Source: a virus
Direction: 5' to 3' (one strand)
DNA: 64,000 bases
IMG/VR virus record: IMGVR_UViG_3300037258_000514
Span: 1-64,000 of that record
The number at the start of each line of letters is the position of its first letter. The first letter of the stretch is position 1. The notes under the pieces are model-generated. The model was not told where the DNA came from. It did not search any database and worked only from the letters and a program-made list of their open reading frames with translations. The position numbers and the translations under genes were made by a program. Positions 6,985 to 46,828 of this stretch are shown piece by piece.

Positions 6985-8298
6985 ATGGCGATCAGTCCTG
7001 ATCACATAACAGTTAGTTCTGCGGGTTTATCTTCAGGAGCGTCGTTAACAACGTCTTCTAGTACAGGTAATCTAAGTGCTGTTGCTATATGTTTGTCTGC
7101 TGTAGCAGGATTAGTTAATAGTGTAACAGATAATAAGAGTAATGCGTATTTGTTGGGAGTTAAGAAAGACGACACACTCTCAGATTTGGAGATTTGGTAC
7201 GCTCCGAATGCAACAACAGGAATAACATCAGTTACTGTTACATTTGTAGGTACAGCAACTATGTTATTTGCCGTTTATGACTGTTCCGGAGCATTAACAA
7301 CAAATCCTTTTGTTAACGCTGATTTTATAGAATCAAATGCAACTGGCAGTACAGCGACGACTAATCCTGTTGGTCCAACAGTTAATTACAATTATGGAGG
7401 AACATTTTCTATTGCAATCTGTTTCTCAACTGGTTCCGTGTCAGCTGTAAGTTCACCCTATACTTTAGACCTAGCTAGTCATAACGGATTGGCTCATGCA
7501 GCATTTGCGGGAACAGGCGTATTTCAACCGAGTTGGACAACACTTGTAAGTCAACCTTGGGCCGGTGTTAATGCCCTATTTGCTTCAAATGCAGGATCAA
7601 ATAATATTAGATTTTTAAAAGGTAAAAGTGGAAGTAATTTACCATCAATTCAAGCTAGTCCTGTAACAACGGCTATCGGAGATTTAGTTATTCTAATAGA
7701 TGTTTCAAGTGGCGGTTCAGCGCCATTTTTCACTGATAATAAAGGAAATACTTTTATAAACGTTCCTGGTATGAATCCTTTTAGTGGCGGAGGCGGAGAT
7801 AGTAACGTTGGATATTGCATTCTTACATCAGCCGGAACTAATCATATTTTCCAATTTAATTCGGCTTTTAATACAACCGGACCAATACTTGGAATAGTAA
7901 TTACACCAAATATAACGCCGACACTTACGGATAAGAATATAGCTTTTACATCATCTTCAGGTACTACATTTACAGGTGTTTCTTGCACGCCTCATGCCGG
8001 AGATTATTTATTTAACTGGACAGACGTGCAAGATGGACAAGAGTCAAGTTTTACTGCTAACGGCTCATGGATACTGGGACCATTTGAATTAGACGGTAAT
8101 AGTTATTCAGATCCACAGACATTAACATATCAGTTAAATGCTGTTGGGGGTTCTACATCTGATAATTCATCTGTATCTCCAAATGCAGCTTCGGCAGTCG
8201 AAGCCATAATTGCATTTACAATTGCAGCTTCATCGCCATCGAATATTTATCCAAATGATTTAACACCCGGGACGAATGTAGTATTTGAGATTGCATAA
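6985..8298 (+). CDS. S/T/G-rich two-domain beta-sandwich accessory structural protein
   Basis: Two similar halves (VTDNKSNAY / FTDNKGNTF). Confidence 0.55.
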   Translation: MAISPDHITVSSAGLSSGASLTTSSSTGNLSAVAICLSAVAGLVNSVTDNKSNAYLLGVKKDDTLSDLEIWYAPNATTGITSVTVTFVGTATMLFAVYDCSGALTTNPFVNADFIESNATGSTATTNPVGPTVNYNYGGTFSIAICFSTGSVSAVSSPYTLDLASHNGLAHAAFAGTGVFQPSWTTLVSQPWAGVNALFASNAGSNNIRFLKGKSGSNLPSIQASPVTTAIGDLVILIDVSSGGSAPFFTDNKGNTFINVPGMNPFSGGGGDSNVGYCILTSAGTNHIFQFNSAFNTTGPILGIVITPNITPTLTDKNIAFTSSSGTTFTGVSCTPHAGDYLFNWTDVQDGQESSFTANGSWILGPFELDGNSYSDPQTLTYQLNAVGGSTSDNSSVSPNAASAVEAIIAFTIAASSPSNIYPNDLTPGTNVVFEIA

Positions 8299-40240: not shown

Positions 40241-40260
40241 GATTTCATAACTGATTAATA

Positions 40261-40291
40261 AACCGGACAGCTAAATACTGTCCGGTTTTTT
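40261..40291 (+). terminator. Rho-independent terminator
   Basis: AACCGGACAG-ctaaata-CTGTCCGGTT followed by T run. Confidence 0.85.
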
Positions 40292-40756: not shown

Positions 40757-40802
40757 GGGCTACAAACTGCTCCTGGAAGGGTTTGTAGCCCATTTTTATT
40801 TT
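40757..40802 (+). terminator. Rho-independent terminator
   Basis: GGGCTACAAAC...GTTTGTAGCCC 11-bp stem then ATTTTTATTTT. Confidence 0.75.
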
Positions 40803-40812
40803 AAAGAAAAGC

Positions 40813-40842
40813 TTGACATTGGACCCTCAATTTTTATATTAT
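40813..40842 (+). promoter_or_regulatory. Sigma70-like promoter
   Basis: TTGACA (40813) with TATATT (16-bp spacer) or TATTAT (18-bp spacer). Confidence 0.7.
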
Positions 40843-40848
40843 TACGCT

Positions 40849-40857
40849 ATGACATAG
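40849..40857 (+). other. Two-codon minigene ATG-ACA-TAG in frame with the Pth ORF
   Basis: ATG ACA TAG ATG at 40849-40860, at the predicted transcription start. Confidence 0.6.
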
Positions 40858-41328
40858 ATGAATCAGAACGCCCCGAATCCTGCCGATAAATACGTGTATC
40901 TCTTCGTCCGCCAAGATCTACCAATTCAACACCAAATTGTTCAATCCAATCACGCCACTCATATGATGGCTTCGATTCGCCCGGAAGAGTGCGTGCCCAA
41001 TATCGTACTTATTGGTGTGCCCGACTTAAACGCTCTTCTTCGTGTGGCGCAGAAGCTTAGAGCTAATCAAATTCCTCACTACGAGTGGGTCGAACCAGAT
41101 TTTGATTTAGGTTTTACTTCAATTGCTACTGCTCCGATTACTGGAGAGAAGCGTCAAGTTTTGAAGAACTATAGACTTTATTCCCCTGGAACCGTTGCGG
41201 TAAACGGCGTCGCTTGTATAGACCAGCCAATCCGCGCAGCTTGTCTCTTAACTGAGGACAGGGGAGCCAGTGCCCGAGTAGCTCAACAGCAAGAGCAGCC
41301 CGGTCTAAACGGGATGGCTGAAGGTTAA
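40858..41328 (+). CDS. Peptidyl-tRNA hydrolase (Pth2-like phage family); C-terminal tail overlaps tRNA-like genes
   Basis: YLFVRQDL...QIVQSNHA, IVLIGV, W.EPD...GFTSIATAP, LKNYRL. Confidence 0.75.
   Translation: MNQNAPNPADKYVYLFVRQDLPIQHQIVQSNHATHMMASIRPEECVPNIVLIGVPDLNALLRVAQKLRANQIPHYEWVEPDFDLGFTSIATAPITGEKRQVLKNYRLYSPGTVAVNGVACIDQPIRAACLLTEDRGASARVAQQQEQPGLNGMAEG
41182..41269 (+). ncRNA. Degenerate tRNA-like element inside the Pth ORF
   Basis: Perfect 7-bp TCCCCTG/CAGGGGA + G + CCA; D-like hairpin CCGTT-GCGGTA-AACGG; weak anticodon and T arms. Confidence 0.45.
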
Positions 41329-41347
41329 AGTCCTTCCTTGGGCACCA
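41272..41347 (+). tRNA. tRNA with CUA anticodon (amber suppressor-like)
   Basis: 76 nt; GCCCGAG/CTTGGGC, GCTC/GAGC, CCCG/CGGG, loop GT-CTA-AA, GAAGG-TTAAAGT-CCTTC, ACCA end. Confidence 0.75.
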
Positions 41348-41350
41348 TAT

Positions 41351-41400
41351 AGGGCGGGCTAGCGCGCTAGCTAGGGGCTTCAGTGCCTCCCGCCCTACCA
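41351..41400 (+). ncRNA. 50-nt mini-tRNA-like RNA
   Basis: AGGGCGG/CCGCCCT + ACCA; hairpin GCTAG-CGCG-CTAGC; T-like arm GGGGC-TTCAGT-GCCTC. Confidence 0.55.
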
Positions 41401-41405
41401 GATAT

Positions 41406-41486
41406 GCCGCTGTAGCTCAGATGGGCTGTATCCAGAGCAGCTTCCTTTTAGGGAGCAGGTCGGTGGTTCGATTCCATCCAGCGGCT
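41406..41486 (+). tRNA. tRNA-Lys(UUU)-like with enlarged D-loop, no encoded CCA
   Basis: GCCGCTG/CAGCGGC, GCTC/GAGC, GCTTC-CTTTTAG-GGAGC, GGTGG-TTCGATT-CCATC. Confidence 0.75.
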
Positions 41487-41502
41487 CTCTTTAAAATCGT
41501 GC

Positions 41503-41530
41503 GTCGGTTCGAACCCGACATGGCGCTCCA
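41503..41530 (+). other. Orphan tRNA 3' half (T arm + 3' acceptor strand + CCA)
   Basis: GTCGG-TTCGAAC-CCGAC-ATGGCGC-T-CCA with no adjacent GCGCCAT 5' strand. Confidence 0.65.
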
Positions 41531-41567
41531 CTTCTTAACTACACCGTGTTTAAGACATATCCACTCA

Positions 41568-42974
41568 TCATCCATTTTCACTCCCTTGCTGCAGTTGATT
41601 TGCCAGTTCCATTGTCATCGCAGTAGAATCCAAACAAAACTGTCCTATCCTGTAGTTCTGTGAAATTAGTGCTGTAAATCCATCCTCTGAATCTCTTCCA
41701 GCAGCAGCGTAAATTCTAGCTAACCCCAAACGCTTTTCCTCAGGAGTTTGACTATACGTTATAACGTTATCCGCTGTACCTATTTTCGACCAATCTTCTG
41801 CAATATGTTTCTTTCCCACAAGATTAGCTTCGTCAGACTCTTTATTACCTTGACTAGCTGTTACAAGTGCTTTATCTCTACTAACAGCAATTCCTCTAAG
41901 TTCCTTGTAGAGTCTACCTGTATCAATACGAAGAATCGAAGAATCAATCCTCATTAAATCCGCATAGTCAACGATGATGATATCTGGATCAAAGGGAATC
42001 TCATGTCCGGCGCCACGCTTAAGAGAATCAAGATACAAGCATAACTGCTCAGTTGATAACATCCCGGGCGGATATTCCTTTATTAGAAATGGAGGAAAAC
42101 TATTTGCCATTGCTAGTAACTTACGACTAACTTCTTTTCTCTTTGCAATGACAGAGTCTCTAATAATATCACGAAAACTAAGTACAACTCCACCTTCCCC
42201 GTCTCTTTGAAAGTAGGGAGTACGTACTTCTTGCGCCTCGTCTTTTGTTAAACTAAACAAAGCTTGAATATAACGTTTTGCTGTCTTCTCTTCGCTTAAT
42301 TCAAGTGTTAGATGAAGTACTTTATGATGATGTTGTATCGCTGCTTTTCCCACGTCTGTTAGCCACCAAGACTTTCCCCTCTTAGCAGCCGCGATGATAA
42401 ACATTAGTGTCTTACGTTCAGGTCTGATCCCCTTTCTATCAAATACTTCTATTCCTGATGAGAAAAATTCATGTTCTTCATTCTTATCCAGAAATCTAAA
42501 TGCTTGTCCAGGATCGAATAACTGTATCCCTTTAGATCCTTCTGTTTGTATTGATACTTGTTTGTAGAGAGCTTCTTTTGCTTGTTCGAGCTCGCCTTGA
42601 TCAACTAAATCTGTTGCTGTTTCAAGTGTTTTCTGTAGCTGCTGAATAGCGATGAAGTGATCGAGTTGTTCAATAATAAACTGCGGTTGGATTAATATGG
42701 ATTGCTTACGAAGTAAATCTATCTCTTGTTTTAAAACACGTCCTTCATCTCCGCGACGAAGTTCGCTCTCGAGTAAATACTCCAACTGCATACCGGGGGC
42801 GATGGAATACTTTTCGATATATGCAAGCGATGTCTTTGCTATATCTTGTGTTTGTTTGTTTGTAAAAAGAGAATTATCGCGTATTCTTAATGCAACCGTA
42901 GCTGCGTGTTCTGCACTAAATGCCAAAAGGCAGAGTACTGCTTCTTCGAGAGCAGCATTAGATATTTTGGTCAT
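41568..42974 (-). CDS. dnaB: DnaB-like replicative helicase
   Basis: AAAKRGKS, HLTLELS, IIVDYADL, TASQGN, IAED. Confidence 0.85.
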   Translation of the reverse strand: MTKISNAALEEAVLCLLAFSAEHAATVALRIRDNSLFTNKQTQDIAKTSLAYIEKYSIAPGMQLEYLLESELRRGDEGRVLKQEIDLLRKQSILIQPQFIIEQLDHFIAIQQLQKTLETATDLVDQGELEQAKEALYKQVSIQTEGSKGIQLFDPGQAFRFLDKNEEHEFFSSGIEVFDRKGIRPERKTLMFIIAAAKRGKSWWLTDVGKAAIQHHHKVLHLTLELSEEKTAKRYIQALFSLTKDEAQEVRTPYFQRDGEGGVVLSFRDIIRDSVIAKRKEVSRKLLAMANSFPPFLIKEYPPGMLSTEQLCLYLDSLKRGAGHEIPFDPDIIIVDYADLMRIDSSILRIDTGRLYKELRGIAVSRDKALVTASQGNKESDEANLVGKKHIAEDWSKIGTADNVITYSQTPEEKRLGLARIYAAAGRDSEDGFTALISQNYRIGQFCLDSTAMTMELANQLQQGSENG

Positions 42975-42977
42975 TTA

Positions 42978-43175
42978 CTATCGAGCGGCGAGAATTGCTT
43001 TCTTAACTTCGCTTACAGGAACTGCTCCTGTTGCATTCTTCTGTTCAAGCATTAACTTAAAAAAGACTGAGAAGTTTTGATTTAATTCCGCGATCTGGGC
43101 TGTCGTCTCAACACGAAGTGCAGCTTCCATACTGTTTAGTGATTTAAACTGATTTCTAATTTCGTTAGATGTCAT
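42978..43175 (-). CDS. Small hypothetical protein
   Basis: Coupled to neighbours; SD AAGGAG. Confidence 0.55.
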   Translation of the reverse strand: MTSNEIRNQFKSLNSMEAALRVETTAQIAELNQNFSVFFKLMLEQKNATGAVPVSEVKKAILAAR

Positions 43176-44326
43176 TCTAGCTCCTTTGGTAAAACTAATA
43201 GCCCACTGTTTGTATAAACTAAGGAATACATTGTAGTTGATGTTAGTTCAAATGTTGCAGAGCACTTTCTTGTTTCCTCAACACAACATTTTACTAAGTG
43301 CACTCCTGTTCCTGTAAGTTGTTTTGGACCGACATGCTCAACAAGAAATTTAGCGATATTTTCAGCTGTAGGATTAAATGGAGTAATTACAACAGTTTTA
43401 TCAAGAGCCTTAAATGTTTTACTCCAAGGATCTTTCTTCCATATTAAAAATCTATGATCCCAGTTTGTTTCTAGCCATTGGCATAGAAGTGTGTTAATTA
43501 CTCCAAAATCAATTACTCTTCCTATTGAATCTAGAGAAGAAGCAACGCATGTAAAGTGTATTCTATAATTATGTCCATGAGCGTGGGAGCAAGCCCCTTC
43601 GTGTCCATATACTCTATGACCTGAAGAGAAATCGTGATAACGAGTAGCTGTAATTAAACTGTTATGAATTTTCTTAGCTATCCATAAGGGAATATCATGC
43701 TCCCAAAGTATTTCGACTTCCCATCCCTTTGCTTTGATAAAGCTAAGTCTTTGTTTTTCGTATGAAATACTTTTCTCTAAAACTTGTTTATCTACAATTT
43801 TATCAAATCCACATATCGAGCAGTTATGCCAAAAACATCCATTAACTTCGAGAATTTTCTTCTCATTTAGTGAGGCAAAATCTACTTGGTATCTTCCGAT
43901 ATGATATTGCCTTTTCCATCCCTGAAGATATTTCGCAACTAAATCTTCTACTTTTGATGTTTTTCTTCTGCCAACTTCAGGAGAATGAAAAATCCAATGT
44001 GCACCATTTTTTAGTGCTGTTGAAATCTTCTTAGCTATTTCAGGATCTTTAGCTATATTCTTCTCGCCATGCTGATATCCTACTTTAGGCATAGAAGTTC
44101 CGTAAATACCTAAGTATGTTTTTCCTTTTGTTCCGTGTCCTTGTTTATAAACAGGTCCGGATTTTACTTCGTGCGACAATCTTATAATTTTTGTTCCGCA
44201 TCCACAGGAACATTCTACTTCTATGGGTGTTAAGCATAAATTGCATATAAACGATTTAATATCGTTAGCTAGAAAACGGTCCTCGCAGTATTTGCAACTA
44301 CGCTCTTTCGGTGTAGTTAAACGCAT
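43172..44326 (-). CDS. queD: 6-carboxytetrahydropterin synthase QueD fused to an N-terminal Vsr/DUF559-like endonuclease
   Basis: C-terminus GHRV.GHEG.C...HGHNY, IDFG, WDH, NPTAEN, EET; N-terminus CSCGCG, YQVDF, EVNGCFWH, ILWEHD. Confidence 0.85.
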   Translation of the reverse strand: MRLTTPKERSCKYCEDRFLANDIKSFICNLCLTPIEVECSCGCGTKIIRLSHEVKSGPVYKQGHGTKGKTYLGIYGTSMPKVGYQHGEKNIAKDPEIAKKISTALKNGAHWIFHSPEVGRRKTSKVEDLVAKYLQGWKRQYHIGRYQVDFASLNEKKILEVNGCFWHNCSICGFDKIVDKQVLEKSISYEKQRLSFIKAKGWEVEILWEHDIPLWIAKKIHNSLITATRYHDFSSGHRVYGHEGACSHAHGHNYRIHFTCVASSLDSIGRVIDFGVINTLLCQWLETNWDHRFLIWKKDPWSKTFKALDKTVVITPFNPTAENIAKFLVEHVGPKQLTGTGVHLVKCCVEETRKCSATFELTSTTMYSLVYTNSGLLVLPKELE

Positions 44327-44589: not shown

Positions 44590-44748
44590 TCATTTAGATT
44601 TTGCCTGGTCGTCTGCTATTTTTGTCGCTGCCGCAATTCGGGCAAGTTCAGCAAACATAGAACTACCTTTAATTGTTTGTGAAATTCTTCTTCTTCGAGC
44701 TTTAGATTTACCTCTATTGGCATTATACTTCTTATTAATCGCCATCAT
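44590..44748 (-). CDS. 52-aa basic protein not in ORF track (MMAINKKYNANRGKSKARRRR...)
   Basis: Fills gap between sbcC and HNH-like gene. Confidence 0.5.
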   Translation of the reverse strand: MMAINKKYNANRGKSKARRRRISQTIKGSSMFAELARIAAATKIADDQAKSK

Positions 44749-46828
44749 GCTCACTTACCTTATAAATTTTACTTCCTGTTGTTTCTTTTACTACAGTCCA
44801 TATTTCCTTAAAACCACTGAACGCTAATGCTCTGTGATCTACGATCCAGATTTGTTTATCATTTGCTTCTGCTCGATACTGAAGTGATTGTAATAAATCT
44901 TCAATACCTTCTGATGATAACCATGATGATGGTTCATCCCACACTTCAAATGTAAATCTAACTCCTGCTGCTCTATGTATTAAACTAGCTAATCCCATAG
45001 CAATAGCAAGGCGAAGGCGCTGTGTTTCTCCCCCTGACCATACATCCCAAGTACCTTGTGCCGTAGGAGAACTAATATGTATTTGTACACCTAACTTGAT
45101 CGTAGCTGATTTTGTTTCGGTTTCAGTGGCGAGTGCCACACTCCAGCCTGTCAACCCTAGCGCACTTATTGCAGACTGAATTTCGAGTTGTAACACAGCA
45201 AGTACCTGCTGAACGAAATAAAGCCGAATGCGTTTAAAACCATGCTTCCAATATTCGGCGGCGATAACTTGTGATTCTATTAATTTATACTCAGTTTCTT
45301 GAGCTACCAGCAGTGTGAGTAAACGTGATCTTTCTTCTTTAACTCTTTCAAGTTTTTTTATGAAAGGATTTTCTTCGATACTAACTGCTGCCATCTGTAT
45401 GGCGTAAGGATCTTTCTTATTCTTAACATCTACAATTTGCTTTGTAAATGGATTGTTTTCGTTTTCGAGCACTGCAAGTTGTTTTATGTAAGGATCGTTA
45501 TCGTGTGCGCGAACGAGCGCCGAAGCGTCTTTCTCAATCTGTCGAATCTGATCTTTTAGGCTTTTTACCTCCTTCTCAAGTATTTGCTTCTTACCATTAT
45601 GTTGAGAATTTGTTACGATGCAACCCTGAATCTGTAAGTTAAAGTCTATAATTTCTTTAGATTTAACTTCTACAACAGCCTGCGCTTTATCACGAGTGTC
45701 TTCGAGAGTTTTCTTTATCTTGCCAACACACTCAAGTTCGTGCTTCTTCTTATCATGTTCGATCTTCTGAAAGCACGTAGGGCACGTTTCTTGTGTCCAG
45801 AGGGAGGCTGCCGTATCACAACTCGCTATATCGTATGTTGTCTTATATAAGATTGCTGTCTGTTCTTTATTTATCTTTTCAAATTCTTTTACAAGGAGTT
45901 GCATTTGTTGAATGTGTCCCTGTAAAGGATTACTTACAAAGTTCTCATACTCAAACTCTAACGGTGCAAGACGTGTTTCAAGATCTTCTATCTGCTGAAG
46001 TTTATCTTCAGCTTCTGTCATTTTGGATTGTTTCCACTCAGCGATACTTTCTGTAAGATGAATGATCTGCTCTTGTTGCTTTCCCAACCAGTTTATAGCT
46101 TGACTTTCAAGTAGGGTTACTTGACGTACTTTTTCATCAGCCCAATCACGTGATTGTTTATCTAGTGACGCAAGCCGCAAGTCTCTTTCAAGATTCCAAG
46201 TTTGTATATCAGCTGATAAGGTTTCTTCAGTAGCTAATGAGTTTAAACTGCCGTTAGTAAAAGCCCGTGCTGTTTTCTTTTGTTCCAAAACTTTTTCAAG
46301 ACTGGATTGCTTGCTACTTGCAGCTTCAGTTGCTTTCTGCCAGACGCTTAGTGAGAGTACTTCGTCAAGTAGAGCGCCACGTTCCGACGTATCTTTATCC
46401 GGAAATAATTCGACACCTTGTCCGAAGATAACAGAATTAAGAAAACGAAGTTTAGATAAGCAGAAAAGTTGATCTACTTCATTTTGTGTTACGATCACGT
46501 CGTTTATTTCGACCTTCATTGGAGGACCGTAACGTTTTACTTTGTATAGGGTTTCATCTATAAACACATGAAATTCTACTTCTGTAGTTTCCTGTCCCCA
46601 ACTTATTACAGAAGATGTTCGTGCACCTTTTATGCTAGTGCCTGTTACACACCAACAAACAGCATCCCAAAATGAACTTTTACCAGCTCCATTAGCTCCG
46701 AGTCGTAGATCTACCTTATTATTGCCTGATAGAAGTTTTAATCCATTTGTATCAGGAAACACAACTGTTTCACTAGAGAACGAACGAAAGTTCTTAATCG
46801 TTACGCGTTGTGGTTTAATAGTCTTCAT
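44735..46828 (-). CDS. sbcC: SbcC/Rad50-like ATPase (gp46-like)
   Basis: IKNFRSF, NGAGKSS, coiled coil with CPTC zinc hook, WSGGE, VWDEP, DH. Confidence 0.92.
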   Translation of the reverse strand: MKTIKPQRVTIKNFRSFSSETVVFPDTNGLKLLSGNNKVDLRLGANGAGKSSFWDAVCWCVTGTSIKGARTSSVISWGQETTEVEFHVFIDETLYKVKRYGPPMKVEINDVIVTQNEVDQLFCLSKLRFLNSVIFGQGVELFPDKDTSERGALLDEVLSLSVWQKATEAASSKQSSLEKVLEQKKTARAFTNGSLNSLATEETLSADIQTWNLERDLRLASLDKQSRDWADEKVRQVTLLESQAINWLGKQQEQIIHLTESIAEWKQSKMTEAEDKLQQIEDLETRLAPLEFEYENFVSNPLQGHIQQMQLLVKEFEKINKEQTAILYKTTYDIASCDTAASLWTQETCPTCFQKIEHDKKKHELECVGKIKKTLEDTRDKAQAVVEVKSKEIIDFNLQIQGCIVTNSQHNGKKQILEKEVKSLKDQIRQIEKDASALVRAHDNDPYIKQLAVLENENNPFTKQIVDVKNKKDPYAIQMAAVSIEENPFIKKLERVKEERSRLLTLLVAQETEYKLIESQVIAAEYWKHGFKRIRLYFVQQVLAVLQLEIQSAISALGLTGWSVALATETETKSATIKLGVQIHISSPTAQGTWDVWSGGETQRLRLAIAMGLASLIHRAAGVRFTFEVWDEPSSWLSSEGIEDLLQSLQYRAEANDKQIWIVDHRALAFSGFKEIWTVVKETTGSKIYKVSEHDGD

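Follow-up and report, generated by a model that had tools for sequence, protein, structure and literature searches.

A 50-nt CCA-ended mini-tRNA without an anticodon, conserved in phages beside a Pth2-like gene and an amber-suppressor tRNA

Mimicry of tRNAs has precedents at the 3' ends of RNA viruses, in tmRNA and in organelle processing signals. The tRNA-like domain of tmRNA corresponds to the top half of a tRNA, ends in CCA and needs no anticodon to function. The t-elements of plant mitochondria, reportedly described by Forner et al. in 2007, are said to be tRNA-like mRNA processing signals; they have a tRNA-like fold without decoding, are probably cut by tRNA-processing enzymes and lie at the ends of mRNAs. 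Among phages, the tRNA cluster of T4 encodes 'species 1 and 2', stable small non-tRNA RNAs of unknown function that are processed with the tRNAs. In the laboratory, the acceptor-T minihelix serves as a substrate of synthetases, RNase P, the CCA-adding enzyme, EF-Tu and FaRel2 (PMC11559606). The nearest published observation that we found is that of Mukai et al. 2017 (PMC5389517), who reported 8/4 tRNAs in phages and, from forest and peat soil metatranscriptomes, polycistrons of irregular tRNAs that are possibly suppressor or non-translating; the authors suggest that some of these irregular tRNAs are non-translating or regulatory RNAs. Phage tRNAs also act against tRNA-targeting defence: in P2-OLD rescue (PMC12445682), full tRNAs encoded in arrays replace the cleaved host tRNAs, for which the anticodon is needed. 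PTH2 has already been noted in jumbo phages, with a proposed role in ribosome rescue after tRNA cleavage (PMC7824862). The new feature described here is a family of free-standing, CCA-ended, anticodon-less mini-tRNA genes in DNA phages, located beside a Pth2-like gene and an amber-suppressor tRNA; we found no description of a phage mini-tRNA of this kind in Rfam or in the papers searched.

The window analyzed in this study is the first 64 kb of a 176-kb virus (phage) record. On its plus strand, positions 41351-41400 encode a 50-nt anticodon-less mini-tRNA, called mini-beta in this study. The acceptor 5' strand AGGGCGGG (41351-41358) forms a perfect 8-bp helix with the 3' strand CCCGCCCT (41389-41396), followed by an encoded ACCA tail at the 3' end (41397-41400). 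The helix encloses hairpin 1, CTAG-CGCG-CTAG (41359-41370; 41359-41374 including the linker), a CTAG linker (41371-41374) and a T-like hairpin, GGGC-TTCAGT-GCCT (41375-41388), with 4 bp, one of them G.U, and the 6-nt loop TTCAGT. The element starts 3 nt 3' of a tRNA with anticodon CUA (amber suppressor type; 41272-41347, plus strand; encoded ACCA; called by ARAGORN) and ends 5 nt 5' of the second tRNA of the array (41406-41487, plus strand). An earlier note on this DNA had pointed to the perfect acceptor pairing, the ACCA end and the place between two tRNAs; all three can be read directly, and the helix extends to 8 bp. The palindromic CTAG hairpin and the T-like arm of that note were likewise recovered, but its 7-bp acceptor with GCTAG/CTAGC and GGGGC/GCCTC stems is only one register. 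Several registers are possible for the inner hairpin, since CTAG is present three times, and the homologues point to 8 bp + 4 bp as the better register for mini-beta.

Only one hairpin of 4-5 bp lies between the acceptor and the T-like hairpin, which bears out the absence of an anticodon loop that the note had claimed. No ARAGORN call and no Rfam match at E<=10 covers bases 41351-41400. The only Rfam matches are the two flanking tRNAs, at 53-55 bits with RF00005 (54.6 bits for 41272-41347; 53.2 bits for 41406-41487), and mini-beta thus lacks the cloverleaf of a canonical tRNA. Its minimum-energy fold is a three-way junction of -28.1 kcal/mol (z -1.7), and its GC content is 70%, compared to 41% in its flanks and 40.6% in the 176-kb record. 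A strict chance scan, asking for at least 7 perfect pairs (at least 5 of them G-C) around 24-38 nt and then NCCA, returned two matches in the 176-kb genome, namely mini-beta and one overlap with a tRNA-His overlooked by ARAGORN; simulated genomes gave 0.28 chance matches per 176 kb. The fold energy alone is unremarkable and, on its own, mini-beta stands only weakly above chance. The case for the element therefore rests on its position and its homologues.

Related IMG/VR contigs, found via the upstream ORF, carry 44-52-nt elements that are alike in shape and occupy the equivalent place. The stem sequences of these homologous elements differ yet remain complementary, and each element ends in NCCA. 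A single MAFFT alignment of all mini classes was poor, and the model was therefore seeded from two ungapped homologues, to which the others were realigned. This first covariance model, R1, was built from loci L009 and L010 only, with the window left out, and is thus independent of it; in a search of the 64-kb window it retrieved mini-beta as the single match (33.7 bits, E 4.8e-6). A second model, R2, built from six sequences, has mini-beta as its sole match on the 176-kb record (49.8 bits, E 3e-8); it also matches exactly once in each of five other phage records, which measure 37-119 kb and of which four have an estimated completeness of at least 90%. The mini-beta alignment contains 14 distinct members from phage or metagenome loci, metagenome contigs included. 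All share a three-way junction with an acceptor of 7-8 bp, hairpin 1, a T-like hairpin of 3-4 bp and an NCCA end, by which we define the family and which the window element also has. Across this alignment, 99.1% of pair cells are paired, versus 38-52% when the partners are slid by 1-3 columns, and compensatory changes occur in 17 of 17 pairs and in all three helices, values that no shuffle reached, in an alignment fitted to a model that itself favours structure. The RNAalifold consensus of the 14 members is identical to the model structure. In addition, G.U pairs are tolerated only in the plus-strand reading of the homologues, which indicates that selection acts on the RNA. As far as sequence comparison can tell, the covariation demonstrates purifying selection on the mini-beta structure at the level of the plus-strand RNA, and the element is neither a chance fold nor a decayed tRNA. 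The covariance search that had been proposed as a check thus returned covarying homologues in phages beside Pth2-like genes, and the earlier preference for selection over decay agrees with the covariation across the 14 phage or metagenome loci.

Across the 14 members, the acceptor helix (7-8 bp) is nearly free of wobble pairs. Together with the T-like hairpin it makes 11-12 stacked layers in all of them, and a G-A or G-G mismatch is frequent where the two helices meet. The acceptor/T stack of a real tRNA has 7+5 = 12 layers; the window element has 8+4 = 12 followed by ACCA, and thus the 12-bp acceptor/T branch of a tRNA. The cap loop of the family is 6 nt long with the consensus UUNRNU, in which U1, U2 and U6 are invariant; the loop of the window (TTCAGT, 6 nt) is accordingly not the canonical 7-nt UUCRANY T-loop. 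The encoded CCA is invariant, the discriminator is a purine in 12 of the 14 members (variants A, G and U), and position -1 is U in nine and G in none. The acceptor sequence is variable: pair 1:72 is G-C, A-U, C-G or U-A among orthologues, and syntenic orthologues diverge at every acceptor identity position. G3:U70 is present in none of the 14 members, the 3:70 pair of the window being G-C. This variation in acceptor and discriminator argues against one single amino-acid identity, and the suggestion in the earlier note of a defined aminoacyl or 'puromycin-like' acceptor does not hold for orthologues that differ at all identity positions and lack G3:U70 throughout. We also know of no route by which an RNA without an anticodon would enter the ribosomal A site, which we count against a puromycin-like acceptor.

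Hairpin 1 occurs in two main kinds. The first has a 6-bp stem and a loop carrying GGAGGCAUC and is found in 7 of the 14 members; the loop contains a Shine-Dalgarno-like GGAGG, and no conserved complement to it was found within the loci. The second consists of CUAG or GCUAGC palindromes, present in the window (41359-41374), in its closest relative L091 (1138-1154), in L007 (about 1929-1944) and in L095 (about 1412-1436). The UAG of these palindromes is the complement of the CUA anticodon of the neighbouring tRNA, and pairing between two minis is conceivable. Hairpin 1 was ruled out as an anticodon arm, with a loop of 4-6 nt and no U33/R37 pattern.

Like the laboratory minihelix, mini-beta has a coaxial stack of ~12 bp, a single-stranded NCCA and no anticodon; it differs from it in being natural, gene-encoded and conserved in phages, and in its extra junction hairpin and 6-nt UUNRNU cap loop. 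With the 8/4 allo-tRNAs it shares a 12-bp acceptor branch split 8/4, soil origin and arrays with possible nonsense suppressors, but these RNAs are set apart by their published description, since they keep an anticodon arm and a long variable arm, of which mini-beta has neither. The tmRNA domain is similar in consisting of a tRNA top half with a CCA end; a tmRNA reading was ruled out, as there is no G3:U70, no message part and no ARAGORN tmRNA, and the length is 50 nt versus about 360 nt. Mini-beta can be seen as a natural counterpart of the minihelix used in the laboratory, similar also to the tRNA-like domain of tmRNA, and belongs to neither the tRNA nor the tmRNA family. In contrast to t-elements, it lies between two tRNAs rather than at the end of an ORF, encodes its CCA and has a conserved extra hairpin. 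The rescue tRNAs of the P2-OLD type are comparable as phage tRNA-type RNAs in arrays, whereas mini-beta cannot decode. T4 species 1 and 2 share the location in a phage tRNA cluster but are much longer, and we know of no sequence relation between them and mini-beta. Type III toxin-antitoxin RNAs (ToxI-like) are tandem identical repeats beside a toxin gene; mini-beta is present as a single copy per genome, and minis that adjoin one another belong to different families.

Mini-beta has a fixed place inside a phage module, which is ordered as promoter, Pth2-like gene with an early UAG, tRNA(CUA), one or two mini-tRNAs and, often, a second tRNA(CUA). Every member lies 1-15 nt from a tRNA(CUA) or another mini, 3' of a Pth2-like ORF. 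When IMG/VR was scanned with a sequence motif irrespective of Pth2, all four matches fell inside such a module, and a strict scan of 107 Pth2-like loci for CCA-ended non-tRNA stems found 29 on the Pth2 strand versus 2 on the opposite strand. In the window, two terminator-like hairpins (40260-40288 and 40779-40791) are located just 5' of the module promoter, a promoter-like site on the plus strand (40813-40842; TTGACA, 16 or 18 nt, then TATATT or TATTAT; 11/12 matches). By eye, the same arrangement of TTGACA and -10 is also present in L001, L002 and L082.

The Pth2-like ORF (40849-41328, plus strand; Pth2 domain at about 40867-41184; PHROG matches) starts with ATG-ACA-TAG (40849-40857) and thus has an in-frame amber at codon 3. 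It contains no stop of its own, and the frame continues through an 88-nt tRNA-like element (mini-alpha) into tRNA(CUA). As in the window, the Pth2-like ORFs of the relatives start almost at the predicted transcription start and have an in-frame UAG within the first six codons, at codon 3 in Ralstonia phage RsoM2USA, codon 4 in Pectobacterium phage CBB and codon 6 in L082 (about 7166-7183); further early TAGs were located in L001 (about 2450), L002 (about 2987), L005 (1478-1486) and L003 (1478-1489). Because ATG-ACA-TAG directly follows a near-consensus promoter, the message may be leaderless, and it may be gated by the adjacent tRNA(CUA). A profile of 38 Pth2-like sequences matches archaeal Pth2 structures in the PDB (E 3e-4), and the AF2 model of the protein (pLDDT 91.6) has as its top 13 Foldseek matches Pth2/Bit1-type or closely related folds, with a TM of about 0.75 (0.69-0.77, E<=0.001). 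Human Bit1/PTRH2 and archaeal Pth2 are among these matches, which stand far ahead of the first unrelated fold. Pfam assigned no family at E<=0.01, so the PF01981 gathering score was not reached. Profile, model and structure search together confirm a predicted Pth2 fold for the neighbouring gene product, the adjacent Pth that had been suspected earlier. The Pth2 proteins of the mini-beta loci are only 50-65% identical to one another.

The second tRNA of the array (41406-41487) reads CTTTTAG in its anticodon loop (UUU by position), carries an insertion of 11 nt in the D-loop, has T as its discriminator and ends without CCA. Its assignment as 'Trp' by ARAGORN, made at position 27, an impossible position, looks like a misreading. 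Its homologue in L091 has the loop TTTCTAA, with CTA shifted by one base. Mini-alpha (41182-41269, plus strand) is CCA-ended and is embedded in the 3' extension of the Pth2-like frame. Its 7-bp acceptor (TCCCCTG/CAGGGGA) encloses an expanded middle and the T-like hairpin TCTC-TTAACT-GAGG, and GCCA follows. We regard it as a separate family, since it shares the T-like hairpin TCTC-TTAAYT-GAGR with compact relatives of 44-56 nt (L007 1876-1919, L097 and L091); by eye, the acceptor stems of window and L091 show compensatory differences. The array closes with an orphan minihelix (41499-41530, plus strand), in which a 4-bp GTGC/GCGC stem carries the canonical T arm GTCGG-TTCGAAC-CCGAC and is followed by TCCA. 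The minihelix has no 5' acceptor strand nearby and was not seen in relatives; it could be what is left of the 3' half of a tRNA, or else a minimal substrate of RNase P.

The genes flanking the module vary among phages and give no functional hint; in two relatives, Pfam identified only one HNH nuclease among ten adjoining ORFs. Further downstream in the window, a DUF559-like stretch and a 6-pyruvoyl-tetrahydropterin synthase (QueD-type) domain occur together in an ORF on the minus strand (43172-44326); the neighbours of this ORF encode a DnaB-like helicase (41568-42974) and an SMC/AAA_23 protein (44735-46828). ARAGORN predicts 32 tRNAs in the 176-kb record, with the main array at 81-99 kb on the opposite strand. 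Between two tRNA-Arg genes of that array there is a 62-nt CCA-ended candidate for a three-way junction (G000:C1:81338-81399, minus strand; GATCTAA...TTAGATC ACCA). A likely tRNA-His overlooked by ARAGORN is located at G000:C1:93862-93936 (minus strand), with the loop CTGTGGA, an 8-bp acceptor and discriminator C.

Cultured jumbo phages CBB, RsoM2USA, RaK2 and Arash carry a Pth2-like gene, some with the early UAG, and mini-beta is absent anywhere in the four genomes. The Pth2-like enzyme thus does not need it. Among 185,579 species genomes, we found no close relative of the Pth2-like protein; the motif of the mini-beta subtype gave 11 matches, none of which passes R2 or folds as a mini, and these were taken as chance matches on the sequence evidence. 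Judged by this one subtype motif, mini-beta is missing from bacterial genomes, and the subtype appears to be confined to phages. A blastn search with positions 40800-41600 had no match in 50,697 phage records, and an exact 26-mer of mini-beta was not found in IMG/VR.

In the reading that we tentatively prefer, mini-beta is excised in the way of a tRNA, persists as a stable RNA and uses its CCA end to act in trans, probably as a decoy that occupies a factor recognizing tRNA acceptor ends. The element would be transcribed together with the module and matured in the manner of a tRNA, with an RNase P cut at the 5' end and 3' trimming to the encoded CCA, leaving a stable 50-mer with a free ACCA; the 11-12 layers, the encoded CCA, the purine discriminator and the U at -1 are marks of a tRNA-like processing substrate with a free CCA end. 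Unable to decode and unlikely to carry one fixed amino acid, the RNA would be an abundant competitor, via its acceptor/CCA end, for a protein that reads acceptor ends, the likeliest target being an enzyme of host defence by which the 3' ends of tRNAs are modified or cut. Such a decoy would spare the real tRNAs of phage and host, and the Pth2-like enzyme would recycle blocked tRNAs. The variable identity positions and the missing anticodon favour a trans-acting competitor over a carrier or a ribosomal use, and the acceptor-stem diversity among orthologues fits adaptation to different hosts or targets. A decoy is feasible because FaRel2, a defence-linked toxin, modifies the bare acceptor-T minihelix as an efficient substrate and reads acceptor-stem pairs (PMC11559606). 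The bait for tRNA-targeting toxins envisaged in the earlier note fits the conserved features as well; a bait for anticodon nucleases would need to be an uncleavable competitor. Several points speak against a decoy: recognition 'as a tRNA' is assumed for an RNA whose 6-nt T-like loop lacks the T-loop consensus, a generic acceptor-end decoy leaves the conserved hairpin-1 loop (7/14) unexplained, the Pth2-like genes of the four cultured jumbo phages come without mini-beta, and the tight Pth2 linkage could equally mean a direct partnership with the enzyme.

Such a partnership is the main rival, although we consider it rather unlikely. Mini-beta would then be a partner, regulator or substrate of the Pth2-like enzyme, bound via its acceptor/CCA end, either as a competitive inhibitor that restrains a potentially harmful hydrolase (RNA-antitoxin-like) or, in line with the earlier note, as an acylated RNA that the enzyme recycles. 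Pth enzymes recognize the acceptor/T half of tRNA, co-location with a Pth2-like gene is strict in every member found, and the in-frame UAG gating suggests an enzyme that needs tight control. However, the four cultured jumbo phages have the gene and no mini-beta genome-wide, the lack of a conserved aminoacylation identity makes a defined acylated substrate improbable, and there are neither tandem repeats nor signs of processing by the protein, unlike in type III antitoxins. An unlikely reading, in our estimate, is that of a cis-acting processing or stability signal for which plant-mitochondrial t-elements are the precedent: the element would recruit RNase P and 3' trimming to define the ends of the neighbouring tRNAs and of the stop-less Pth2 message, and the released 50-mer would have no function. 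All conserved features are bacterial RNase P determinants (~12-bp stack, capping hairpin, RCCA, U at -1), the spacers measure merely 1-15 nt, and the window array itself closes with a smaller T-arm minihelix and UCCA. The flanking RNAs are, however, already RNase P substrates, so no extra cut is gained, and a spacer needs neither a perfect G+C-rich 8-bp helix nor a hairpin-1 loop conserved across Pth2 proteins that are 50-65% identical.

We regard it as improbable that mini-beta carries an amino acid for some reaction outside the ribosome; it would then be charged by a synthetase whose recognition is limited to the acceptor stem and would serve as a donor in the manner of the staphylococcal non-proteinogenic tRNA-Gly. 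Minihelices can be charged by several synthetases and single members do resemble particular tRNA identities: L095 1462-1514 has U1:A72, G2:C71, G3:C70 and G73, which we take to be as in tRNA-Gln, and the window stem AGGGCGG is presumably similar to that of E. coli tRNA-Trp. These identity positions vary among orthologues, however, and no transferase gene is conserved nearby. Least credible, to the point of being very hard to reconcile with the alignment, is the view that a former tRNA gene has shed its anticodon arm and survives as a relic, or that the CTAG repeats are a palindrome at the DNA level without any role as RNA. The place in a tRNA array, the z-score of merely -1.7 and the potential of CTAG palindromes as protein-binding sites would suit it, but it is contradicted by compensatory changes in three helices at 14 loci and by G.U pairs on one strand only; most members have no CTAG, and their acceptor stems differ at most positions, so the homologues are not recent copies of one sequence.

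The conflict between phages and bacteria over tRNAs is a fast-moving field, with PrrC, PARIS, OLD, Schlafen, CapRel/toxSAS and MenT among its players. Should mini-beta be a decoy or an enzyme partner, it would add an RNA-based layer to this conflict, and two puzzles would become testable, namely why phages carry Pth2 and why phages with the standard code carry suppressor tRNAs. A wider proposal, possible though doubtful, is that non-decoding tRNA 'top halves' are a form of phage counter-defence, acting as CCA-ended decoys for acceptor-end immune enzymes or as uncleavable jammers of nucleases that read the tRNA shape, with Pth2 and suppressor tRNAs in one self-contained mobile 'translation-protection' module. 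Mini-beta is also a putative natural 50-nt minimal substrate for tRNA-end enzymes.

Other mini classes (L015, L020, L014 2034-2083 and L007 1876-1919) were undetected by R2 with default filters and are therefore treated as separate families. Further CCA-ended minis of 46-50 nt are present beside Pth2-like genes in L014 (2034-2083), L015 (2583-2632), L020 (2209-2258 and 2374-2419) and L050 (1817-1862); their first hairpins are GNRA-capped, and some of the contigs exceed 450 kb. On a 517-kb IMG/VR contig (L061 1246-1335), two smaller CCA-ended hairpins directly follow tRNA(CUA), each with an 8-bp acceptor-like stem, one short GTAA-capped hairpin and ACCA.
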